Below, piece by piece: positions 57,001 to 60,000 of a stretch of 64,000 nt of DNA. Position 1 is the stretch's first letter. Each line of letters opens with the position of its first letter. The DNA is taken from the NCBI RefSeq assembly GCF_053078305.1, contig NZ_CP166879.1; one strand, given 5' to 3'. A program made the position numbers.

Positions 57001-60000
57001 GATATCCTCCACTCTCCGACGCCGCCAGAATGACGGCGCGGTGGTTAAGCATGAGGCGAAATTTCTGCCGGGCGGTATTTTGTTGAGAGATGAGATACGT
57101 CAACTTCTCTTTCCGCTTTTTCGAGGCTCCATGCCGTCTGGAGACGAATCCATGAAGACGGAGTTCCACCCAGGACAGCAGCGAGACGAACAGCCATTTC
57201 AGGAGATATTGTCGCATTACCTGAAACCAGTCGCTGAACAGTGGAAGGCGCGACATCAAGCGCTCTTGCCAGTTCCCTGATTCCAATATTCTGATCTTCC
57301 AGAATATCAGCAATAATTTCTCCGGGATGAGGGGGGTTAAACATCGCCATTAGTGGTAATCCTCGTAGTTAAGAATATAAGCATCGCCGTTCCGAAACTC
57401 GAATGTGATTCTCCAGTTACCGGAGACGGTGACAGACCATGTATCGGATCTGTCCCCCTGCAACTGGTGCAGCCTGTACCCGGCAAGGTTAATATCATCA
57501 ATGATTTCAGCTTGATCTATTACCTGAAGGCGCGTTCTCAGGCGTTTAACGTGATTGGGATTTACGCCTGATGCATTTCCTGTTTCAAAGAAACGTTGAA
57601 GTCCTTTGTGTTTCCAGCTTTTTATCATGCTTGTTTCCTGTTGCGTTACGTGAATCATTATAGCGACTGTTGTGTAATGCGCAACGGTTGTTTGACAAAA
57701 ATAGGTATCCGGGATTATATTCTTCGCACGGTCGAGTTGACCGTCGGGATTCGAACCCCGGATAGAAACCGCGACAGAGACACGCCGCGAGCGTGTTTTT
57801 TATTGTCGTATGCACGCGCACATCTGAATTATGGTGGGGCGTATAGGGGAGCTGAAAAGCTCGCCGGTTGGTTTCCCGGTAGTTCGAACCCTGTACGTCT
57901 CACCACCCGATGATTCGAACCTAACGGTGGTGATAGTTTAGAAACCACTCGAGGGCGTCATAATGACAACTCAAGTTTCTGTTGAAACACTCTCCACGAT
58001 TACTTACAAGCAGATCCCCGTTATCACTACCGAACTTTTGACGCACCTTTACGGCACAGAAGCTATTCGTATTCGCCAGAATCACCACGAAAACAAAGGT
58101 CGTTTCATTGAGGAAAAACACTTCTTCAAACTTGAAGGTGAAACTTTACGTGAGTTCAAGCACAGAGTAGCTTTTAACTACTCTGTGAAAATCGCCCGTA
58201 ATGTTCGCTCCCTCATCCTCTGGACAGAACGCGGCGCAGCCCGTCACGCAAAAATGCTCGAAACCGATCGGGCGTGGGAAGTGTTCGAAAAACTGGAAGA
58301 CTGCTATTTCAGCCAGAAAACTCCAGAACAACTTCAGCTTCCAGAATCAACGCTATCTATCAACTACCCTCTATCGTGGTTTTCTGAGCATCACCCATAC
58401 TCCATGATGAGCTATGTTGATCGAAAAACTCTTAACCTGGACGTTTCTGTGCTCTTCGATATGCCAAGCCCAACTATGCGCATCCTCAACGAGCTACACA
58501 GCAAGGGCTATAACGTTGACGCCGCTGTCGCCGAATTTAACGCCTTCAAGCATCTGACGGAAGAAATGCGCCGTACTCTACAGGATATTTCAAGACTGTC
58601 AGATCGAAATTCCCGAAAAGGCTTCTCGTTAAGCCTGTAACTTCCCCTACCATCCCCGACATCCCGTCGGGGTTTTCATATCTGGAGAAAAAATTTGAAA
58701 CAGATCGCTTTCTACAGGCGTTCTGGAAGGCCCGGTGCCTTCCGTGGGTTAAAAGAGCGCGTCACCTGGATGATTCAGTCTCGTGGTCGTCCTGTTACTG
58801 GCAGTGAAATAGCAGAGAAATTTGGTGTTTCACTTTGCGAGTTCAACAAGGTAGCTCGCGGCCTGACAAAGGGCAGTAAGGTTGTGAAAATAAAGGCTTC
58901 AGAACCATTCACCACAGACACCGGAATCGTTGATCGCTTTTTCTCCCTCGAATCAAATCCTCGTCGTGATACACCTCGCTCACGCAATGCCGTTCCTCCA
59001 TTCAGTCGCAGAAGCCGTGAACACGCAGCAAAAAACTGCCGCGAGGAATACGAGCAAAAGGCCAAACGCCGTCGCCGACTGATTAAAGCAGGACTTTACA
59101 TTGATGAGTTTGAAAACGCGCTATGACGAAAAAATACACCCTCATTTACGCAGATCCACCATGGACATTCCGCGACAAAGCAACCGATGGTCAACGCGGT
59201 GCAAGTTTTAAATATCCGGTCATGAACCTTCTCGATATCTGCCGCCTCCCGGTATGGGAACTGGCAGCCGATAATTGCCTGTTGGCTATGTGGTGGGTGC
59301 CTACACAACCACTTGAAGCATTGAAGGTTGTAGAAGCGTGGGGCTTTCGTCTGGTGACGATGAAAGGATTAACCTGGAACAAATGCGGGAAAAGACAGAC
59401 CGACAAGCTGGTCATGGGTATGGGTAGCACCACTCGCGCTAACAGCGAAGACTGCCTTTTTGCAGTGAAAGGAAATCTGCCCGAACGCATTAACGCCGGA
59501 ATAATCCAGTCATTCACTGCACCACGCCTTGATCACTCCCGCAAGCCGGATATGGCTCGAGAAAAACTTGTGCAACTTCTTGGCGATGTTCCCCGGATAG
59601 AACTGTTCGCCCGCCACACCTCGCATGGATTTGATGTATGGGGTAACCAATGCGGCACACCATCCATTGAGATGGTTCCGGGTATTGTTAAATTTCTGGA
59701 GAAAACCAATGAGCGAAAAAACGACGTTGACAAAGGCATCACCAGTTGAATTAAGGCAGTGTCTGGAAATCGCAAATCAACTTGCCAGAAGTGGAATACG
59801 ATTTGTTCCAATCCCGATTACAGCAGATGCAGAACTTCATCTGTTTGGTGAAATTCTTTCCCGAAAGCTGGATGAACTGGAAAAGCTGGTAGAAGAAGCT
59901 GACACCTCACTAACCGTATAACAGCCCCACCGACATTAAAATATCAGGAGAAAAAAATGAACGCAGTGCTCACAGAATTGAACAAATTAGGAAAAGCATC

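Follow-up and report, generated by a model that had tools for sequence, protein, structure and literature searches.

We analysed a 64-kb stretch of contig NZ_CP166879.1 (assembly GCF_053078305.1), hereafter called the window, and focused on the gap between a higBA toxin-antitoxin pair on the minus strand and a 225-codon antirepressor-type gene (ant) on the plus strand. This gap holds a short RNA of the IsrK family, an antisense RNA of the C4 family and six short boxes, and we consider it likely that the locus is an immI-type RNA cassette, as known from phages P1 and P7, which gates the antirepressor gene. The initial annotation had described the region as the source of a promoter- and terminator-bounded small RNA (sRNA), accompanied by three copies of a motif with a TTCGAA core. 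Judged by their sequence and position, these three copies correspond to boxes known from the immI-type system of P1/P7, namely a1, a' and a2. The C4 RNA, which holds the second copy and would be the main regulator, was not recognised in that annotation, where it appeared as motif-bearing spacer.

An isrK-type RNA and a C4-type RNA lie in tandem upstream of ant

In an Rfam scan the isrK and C4 matches were adjacent, on the same strand and both above their curated thresholds. The isrK covariance model (RF01394) matched 57728-57801 over its full length (model positions 1-77), a marginal pass with 53 bits against a threshold of 50 (E = 1.3e-9), and the C4 model (RF01695) matched 57827-57910, also over its full length (1-87), with 70.1 bits against a threshold of 45 (E = 1e-12). 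The cassette, all of its RNAs and ant are on the plus strand, to which coordinates refer unless stated otherwise. For comparison we fetched 14 phage loci and the corresponding locus of one Escherichia coli chromosome (strain G1/2, L001), the phages being Shiga toxin (Stx) phages of several genera, Gifsy-1, P1, P4, APSE-7, and one Yersinia, one Actinobacillus and one Salmonella phage. Rfam finds the isrK and C4 tandem in every fetched locus but P1, where the upstream part is matched by the c4-a1b1 model instead.

The short RNA, 74 nt long, is bounded as the initial annotation had proposed. Its sigma-70 promoter (57692-57721; -35 TTGACA at 57692-57697, an 18-nt spacer and -10 TATATT at 57716-57721) agrees with 11 of the 12 consensus positions, and when 16 related loci are aligned the -10 positions and TTGAC in the -35 element prove to be invariant or nearly so. 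Transcription is predicted to start at A57728, where the Rfam isrK model also begins. The number of promoter-like sites in the region is of little meaning alone, since three were observed and shuffled sequences give 1.8 +/- 1.4. No LexA-type operator (CTGT-N8-ACAG) was seen by eye at the promoter. At the other end stands an intrinsic terminator or attenuator (57780-57801, ACACGC-CGCGA-GCGTGT followed by T6); although a simple terminator scan has no plus-strand entry there, 57728-57801 in its minimum-energy fold has a terminal 10-bp stem and then a U-run, and this hairpin aligns with the terminator hairpin of the isrK model. The length of about 75 nt foreseen for the transcript was close to the mark, but there are three hairpins (a 5' hairpin, the a1 hairpin and the terminator) and not two.

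Compensatory changes affect five of the 13 pairs of the isrK consensus fold (14 loci), and the homologous loci score 56-79 bits with the isrK model. The RNA has what is expected of the isrK type, namely its own promoter, an intrinsic terminator, and a position directly 5' of a C4-like RNA and an antirepressor gene. Together, the model match and the conservation support 57728-57801 as a genuine and conserved isrK-family RNA gene, the counterpart of the P1 a1b1 leader and of P4 seqA.

The C4 stretch folds with -43.7 kcal/mol (z = -5.87) into the shape typical of its family, in which a long outer stem surrounds two hairpins and a single-stranded junction, and its consensus fold carries compensatory changes at 15 of 27 pairs (15 loci). 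Its ends match those of P1 C4, with the conserved AUGGUGGG at the 5' end and CACCACC at the 3' end; by analogy with the 77-nt P1 C4, the mature RNA is predicted to be 57833-57907, 75 nt long. As the initial annotation had noted, the third motif copy is enclosed by a CACCACC/GGTGGTG stem (57901-57907 and 57926-57932), and this hairpin (57901-57932), which presents the a2 box in its loop, is kept in all loci. Because the CACCACC arm doubles as the 3' strand of the outer C4 stem, the C4 fold and the a2 hairpin are mutually exclusive.

Six boxes vary in sequence and keep their complementarity

The sequence RTTCGAACC occurs only three times in the whole window (57749, 57882 and 57913), always on the plus strand and within 173 nt, so that the three TTCGAA-core copies reported earlier are all present and are the sole ones; the expectation for the window is 1.12 copies, and 6 of 100 shuffles reach three. 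A repeat search returned GATTCGAACC twice at 100% identity (57748-57757 and 57912-57921), as well as a second repeated box that had been missed, TAGAAACC (57763-57770 and 57939-57946).

We placed the boxes by mapping the annotated P1 target sites onto the window, comparing 15 loci. The P1 record annotates a1 and b1 5' of c4, and a2 and b2 3' of it next to the icd ribosome site, and all four fall at homologous positions. In the short RNA, the a1 box (TTCGAAC, 57750-57756) occupies the loop of the second IsrK hairpin, which has a CGGG/CCCG stem, and is complementary to a', while b1 (GAAACCG, 57765-57771) is single-stranded and complementary to b' over 7 bp including one G-U pair. Within C4, b' (TGGTTTC, 57869-57875) lies in the loop of the second inner hairpin and a' (GTTCGAA, 57882-57888) in the single-stranded junction. 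The ant leader carries a2 (TTCGAAC, 57914-57920), a 7-bp target of a' in the loop of the CACCACC/GGTGGTG hairpin, and b2 (GAAACCA, 57941-57947), a 7-bp target of b' situated 3 nt 5' of the ant Shine-Dalgarno sequence (GAGGG, 57951-57955; the ant AUG is at 57963).

A Watson-Crick helix of 7 or 8 bp joins a' and a2 in all 15 loci and one of 6-8 bp joins a' and a1 in 14 of them, with b'-b1 and b'-b2 helices of 6-14 bp. These helices are kept even though the a box takes ten different sequences in the 15 loci (TTCGAAC, TTAGGAAC, TTCGCAT, GTGAGAA, TTGGCGT, TTTGCAC, TTAGCAC, TTGGAAC, TCGCAG and TTGACAG); the b box is similarly variable and retains complementarity to its own b'. Only 0.5-2% of the non-cognate combinations reach the cognate mean helix length for a-a2, b-b1 and b-b2. 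In an RNAduplex matrix of 37-nt C4 cores against 38-72-nt targets the cognate pairs were better by about 9 kcal/mol on average, with ranks made noisy by the conserved CCGG stems, for which reason contiguous-helix counts were used instead. The family membership and the structures described above, like the boxes and their covariation, are observations. The boxes covary in the way of paired RNA strands and hence are not protein operators; of the earlier suggestion of an RNA or operator control region for the antirepressor, the RNA part holds and the operator part does not.

The window type alone has a palindromic a box (the 8-nt GTTCGAAC of the a' region is a palindrome), the box of all other examined loci being non-palindromic. 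It is because of this palindrome that a1, a' and a2 could be read here as three direct copies of one motif. The palindromic box could also allow pairing between two C4 molecules or between a1 and a2.

A further complementarity lies around the promoter. Its spacer (57706-57716, TATCCGGGATT) can pair at 10 of 11 positions with the 3' flank of the a1 hairpin (57754-57764, AACCCCGGATA), and 11 of 15 loci retain this pairing, with three versions of the sequence (besides the window, in L001, L004, L006, L008-L010, L012, L013, L015 and L017). The P1 version is ATCGTTCAGGCT/AGCCTGAATGTT, and in phage sal3 17 of 18 positions pair. In the control 13% of shuffles reached 10 pairs, which makes the complementarity only moderately convincing. 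The spacer is not transcribed from the 57728 start, so the pairing would be relevant only to transcripts initiated upstream (for example from P1 P51a) or as a DNA inverted repeat, and it could add a regulatory layer for transcripts initiated further upstream.

The cassette probably controls ant translation through competing RNA pairings

For the direction of regulation, the processing of C4 and the coupling between the RNAs we argue by analogy with characterised relatives. The promoter at 57692-57721 looks constitutive and would start an RNA at about 57728, and most transcripts would end at 57780-57801 as the 74-nt IsrK-type RNA with a1 and b1. Read-through past 57801 would be needed for C4, the ant leader and the ant mRNA, and the terminator would set the ratio of short RNA to C4. 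The C4 RNA would mature to about 75 nt, probably by RNase P cleavage like P1 C4, and once folded it would expose both of its boxes, b' in a hairpin loop and a' in the unpaired junction. Their pairing with a2 and b2 in the ribosome landing zone would then leave ant untranslated, as pairing by C4 does for icd-ant in P1/P7. The a1 and b1 boxes would serve as decoy sites: paired with a' and b' in cis, they would lock the long transcript in an alternative fold, while the short RNA acting in trans may occupy C4 and so free the ant leader, as with IsrK of Gifsy-1.

The relatives on which this proposal draws do not all work in the same way. P1 combines translational repression with Rho, and its C4 is processed from the operon transcript. 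In P1/P7, C4 blocks icd-ant translation by pairing with a2 and b2 (Citron and Schuster 1990, as cited in later work). P4 immunity is controlled by termination, and Gifsy-1 is activated by the short RNA (PMC4825925). In Gifsy-1 most transcripts end at the IsrK terminator, and read-through has been shown experimentally; the read-through RNA is translationally silent, the middle of IsrK pairing with about 30 nt inside orf45, and short IsrK in trans binds the same stretch of orf45 and switches on translation of orf45 and anrP (PMC4825925).

Folding of the window sequence places the cis fold (a1-a' plus b1-b') 3.0-3.6 kcal/mol above the minimum-energy fold with free C4. For Gifsy-1 the published structure A comes out of the same software as the fold of lowest energy; the two loci share near-isoenergetic alternative folds and differ in that the cis fold is the minimum in Gifsy-1 whereas the window favours the C4 fold by about 3 kcal/mol. 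G28-C162 and G31-C159, the compensatory pairs published for Gifsy-1, correspond to a1-a' positions. When C4 was cofolded with the leader or the short RNA under a model that allows no pseudoknots, each RNA stayed self-folded, a result that is uninformative because loop-loop kissing cannot be represented.

Several points weigh against the proposed translational switch. The mechanisms of the homologues in P1, P4 and Gifsy-1 differ, and the net sign of control cannot be read from the sequence here. The isrK score is marginal (53 against 50), and the c4-a1b1 model (RF03163), which passes its threshold in five related loci, has no match in the window at E <= 1; the 5' hairpin of the short RNA is 3 nt shorter here than in other loci, which may be part of the reason. 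The b2 box ends 3 nt before the Shine-Dalgarno sequence, whereas in P1, P4 and several other loci b2 covers it. Between the boxes and ant we found no icd-like open reading frame (ORF), the only ORF being one of 36 codons (57831-57941) that starts at an AUG inside the 5' end of C4, and this ORF stops 21 nt 5' of the ant AUG without overlapping it, unlike its positional counterpart orf45 in Gifsy-1.

In 16 loci the ORF that starts at the C4 AUG ranges from 8 to more than 45 codons and is variable in sequence. This variation rules it out as a conserved peptide gene, and the 36-codon ORF is probably not a conserved protein. An RNase P-type cleavage at G57833 would remove its start codon. Translational coupling of the ORF to ant is uncertain, because the ORF stops 21 nt short, is not conserved and could lose its start codon to such a cut.

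Alternative explanations for the locus

The main rival to translational gating of ant is a mechanism like that of P4, which we regard as possible but improbable. The C4-type RNA would here pair with a1/b1 and a2/b2 in nascent RNA and cause premature termination, at 57780-57801 or through Rho further downstream, with no block to the ribosome. The P4 immunity region does match the same two Rfam families in the same order, a1 and b1 stand immediately 5' of the intrinsic terminator, and PMC4825925 discusses termination in P4 and how it might bear on IsrK. However, Gifsy-1, the closest characterised antirepressor relative, is controlled at translation, with a 139-fold induction by IsrK of a translational fusion against 8-fold for a transcriptional fusion (PMC4825925), and the position of b2 adjoining the Shine-Dalgarno sequence fits translational control.

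Very improbable is the idea of a stand-alone RNA of about 75 nt that acts directly on ant as sar does in P22, the TTCGAA motifs being either the sites it recognises or operators bound by protein. The short RNA does exist and has TTCGAAC in common with the ant leader, the palindromic core would permit direct a1-a2 pairing over 6 bp, and the P22 system is alike in that an RNA restrains antirepressor translation in a temperate phage. P22 sar is antisense in the strict sense: it is read from the strand opposite to ant, overlaps the ant start and shares no RNA family with the elements described here. Some of the sar details used in this comparison come from a review (PMC12197685). In the window everything is co-directional: the two RNA genes share the strand of ant, the minus strand showed no promoter in 57700-57990, and the regulator would be co-transcribed upstream of its target and act via short loop boxes. 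Each of the remaining 14 loci has an a1 and an a2 that are identical to each other and not self-complementary, so a1-a2 pairing is impossible there, and both pair with a' in C4; nor would a DNA operator be required to covary as RNA pairs. The sar/ant analogy of the initial annotation gives way to relatives of another kind, P1/P7 c4-icd-ant, P4 seqA-CI-seqC and Gifsy-1 isrK-orf45-anrP.

The initial annotation had also considered an RNA partner of the adjacent toxin-antitoxin module. A regulator or other RNA belonging to higBA would fit the position of the cassette, which adjoins higB in divergent orientation, but we think this hardly credible, as the neighbours vary between loci, identity to the PA2-type phages begins at the -35 hexamer, and every box is explained without complementarity to higBA. 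Among the fetched phage loci higBA stands beside the cassette only in GER2, to which the E. coli locus L001 can be added. The other upstream neighbours are ninE, ParD-type antitoxin, VRR-NUC and Cro/DNA-binding protein genes, among others, and the downstream gene, where annotated, is Ant, BRO-N, ORF6N or another regulatory gene. Since the upstream flanks vary and the downstream gene is of antirepressor or regulatory type, the cassette belongs to ant and not to higBA.

Least probable of all is a degenerate tRNA or attachment-site remnant, suggested by the likeness of GTTCGAA (minus-strand motif GGTTCGAATC) to the T-loop consensus, given that nine other box sequences occur in homologous loci; ARAGORN found no tRNA in the window, and Rfam gave no tRNA match even at E <= 1. 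Known sRNAs of Stx phages were considered too and do not correspond to this locus: 24B_1 is positioned between lom and vb_24B_43, and AsxR and AgvB are encoded 3' of stx or of moron genes located downstream of PR'.

The cassette is an instance of a known system

The RNA families, the box logic and the link to an antirepressor have been described for P1/P7, P4, Gifsy-1 and APSE, and the cassette is an instance of this already known system; peculiar to it are only the palindromic a box and the placement of b2 beside rather than on the Shine-Dalgarno sequence. With the immI operon of P1/P7 (P51a/P51b, a1b1, c4, a2b2, icd, ant1/2) it shares the same Rfam C4 family and the order of promoter, a1/b1, C4 (b' before a'), a2/b2 near a ribosome site and antirepressor gene, all on one strand. 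P1 differs in having a c4-a1b1 match only, with no strong isrK-model match and no clean terminator match, in carrying icd between C4 and ant, a C1 operator and a second upstream promoter, and in its boxes (TTGACAG and GTTAGTG), the overlap of b2 with the Shine-Dalgarno sequence and antirepressor proteins of different families.

The isrK-orf45(STnc1160)-anrP region of Gifsy-1 (Hershko-Shalev et al. 2016, PMC4825925) has both Rfam families in tandem (isrK 79.3 bits, C4 69 bits), and the matches coincide with the isrK RNA studied there and the region of orf45/STnc1160. Its promoter is very similar and its downstream gene is also of antirepressor type, the proteins having very similar N-termini (MTTQISVETL against MTTQVSVETL). 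The differences, apart from the folding preference, are the boxes (TTGGCGT and TCACCG), the overlap of orf45 with the anrP start where the window ORF ends 21 nt 5' of ant, and the surroundings, since the Gifsy-1 cassette lies beside a Q antiterminator gene and that of the window between higBA and a methyltransferase operon.

In the P4 immunity region (seqA, CI RNA, seqC) an isrK-model match likewise precedes a C4-model match, the CI RNA, and upstream and downstream boxes are complementary to it; the seqA RNA has been described as a structural homologue of IsrK (PMC4825925). There, however, the spacer is 107 nt, and CI acts by premature transcription termination on replication genes rather than on an antirepressor (PMC4825925). 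APSE phages (Rouil et al. 2020, PMC7313666) have the isrK and C4 tandem 5' of a BRO-N gene, annotated in GenBank with putative a' and b' regions, and differ in the host lineage (Hamiltonella), the boxes and the downstream protein family.

A BLAST search against phage records gave 239-264 records with a match. For PA2/PA8-type Stx2a phages the identity was 98.4%, in a match that begins at the -35 hexamer of the promoter. The GER2 and E. coli G1/2 (EcG1_2) cassettes are about 88% identical over the 401-nt query and differ from the window mainly at the six a/b boxes and in compensating stem changes, a specificity swap like that between P1 and P7. The window is a mosaic of the two types: from higB to the -10 box it is of the GER2/G1/2 type, and everything between the transcription start and ant is identical to PA2-type Stx2a phages. 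The crossover lies in the shared TATCCGGGATTATATTC of the promoter.

The c4 and c4-a1b1 motifs were catalogued in 2010 (PMC2864571), and studies of EDL933 list isrK and C4 as known Rfam non-coding RNAs. The RefSeq/GenBank records of the closest relatives have no non-coding RNA feature at the cassette or call small ORFs over the RNAs, and among the records examined only those of APSE annotate both RNAs. The literature on PA8, whose cassette is identical, covers the downstream proteins (PNB-1, PNB-2 and the MT-A70 16S rRNA methyltransferase) and not the RNAs. For annotation it is of value to know of the C4/IsrK RNA switch that precedes the PNB-1/ORF6N gene of PA2/PA8-type phages. Antirepressors are able to induce a prophage while its repressor stays uncleaved, and in the PA2/PA8-type Stx2a phages, close relatives of the cassette, induction means release of Shiga toxin.

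A second cassette of similar logic in the same prophage

A cassette of the same logic was seen at 48640-48890, followed by an Ant gene (48886-49524, 212 aa; phrog_377, 3.6e-59). Promoter-like elements (TTGACA at 48642 and ATATATT at 48665) precede a short terminated RNA with the boxes TGAACAC (48686) and TGCAAAG (48697). An Rfam match to sRNA-Xcc1 follows (48757-48845, 65.9 bits against 53), which carries the complements CTTTGCA (48811) and GTGTTCA (48820), and downstream copies of the boxes are found at 48845 (TGAACAC) and at 48869 (TGCAAAG), the latter overlapping the Shine-Dalgarno sequence AAGGA. The sRNA-Xcc1 cassettes of two fetched loci (L006 and L016) have other self-consistent boxes, TCAGAAC/GTTCTGA and TCTAAAG/CTTTAGG. 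We tentatively suggest, as the less probable case, that the prophage runs two sequence-orthogonal C4-style cassettes, isrK/C4 at 57.7 kb and sRNA-Xcc1 at 48.64-48.89 kb, each gating its own antirepressor. If this were true, sRNA-Xcc1, which Rfam places outside the C4 clan, would be an unrecognised branch of the C4/CI class.

Genes surrounding the cassette

The gene behind the cassette (57963-58640) encodes a 225-aa antirepressor-type protein with an ORF6N domain (Pfam ORF6N, 2.3e-18; phrog_1760, 'anti-repressor', 2e-121) and corresponds to PNB-1 (gp7) of phage PA8, the name under which it appears in PMC10810198; its start is matched by the published PA8 cloning primer. The unit ends at an intrinsic terminator 3' of the gene (58654-58672), found by the terminator scan and reported as the same hairpin in PMC10810198. 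This terminator stands between ant and two further plus-strand genes (58695-59126 and 59123-59749), homologues of PA8 PNB-2 (phrog_1680) and of the MT-A70 methyltransferase. In PA8 these two proteins are reported to make up a 16S rRNA methyltransferase of two subunits, with an effect on the induction of Stx prophages (PMC10810198).

On the other side of the cassette, the minus-strand pair consists of the toxin gene higB (57350-57658, phrog_3066) and higA (57045-57350). Just 5' of higBA lies a third antirepressor-type gene (56265-57002, plus strand; phrog_1726, 7e-95), and the Rfam scan gave no RNA match in the short spacer upstream of it. The three Ant-like genes of the prophage are on the same strand as those for RecT (50369), an exonuclease (51367) and SSB (52056), and are situated between a CI-like repressor gene (45468-46226) and the integrase gene (61330-62664).

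Elsewhere in the window, an ORF at 59957-60355 (plus strand) encodes seven PVQ tripeptide repeats (PVQPVQPVQPVQPVQPVQPVQ) by a 9-nt tandem repeat, and its E. coli G1/2 homologue is annotated as a DUF1627 protein. Two tandem Rfam matches to STnc100 lie on the minus strand at 37847-38060 and 38122-38333, with 199 and 139 bits against a threshold of 47.

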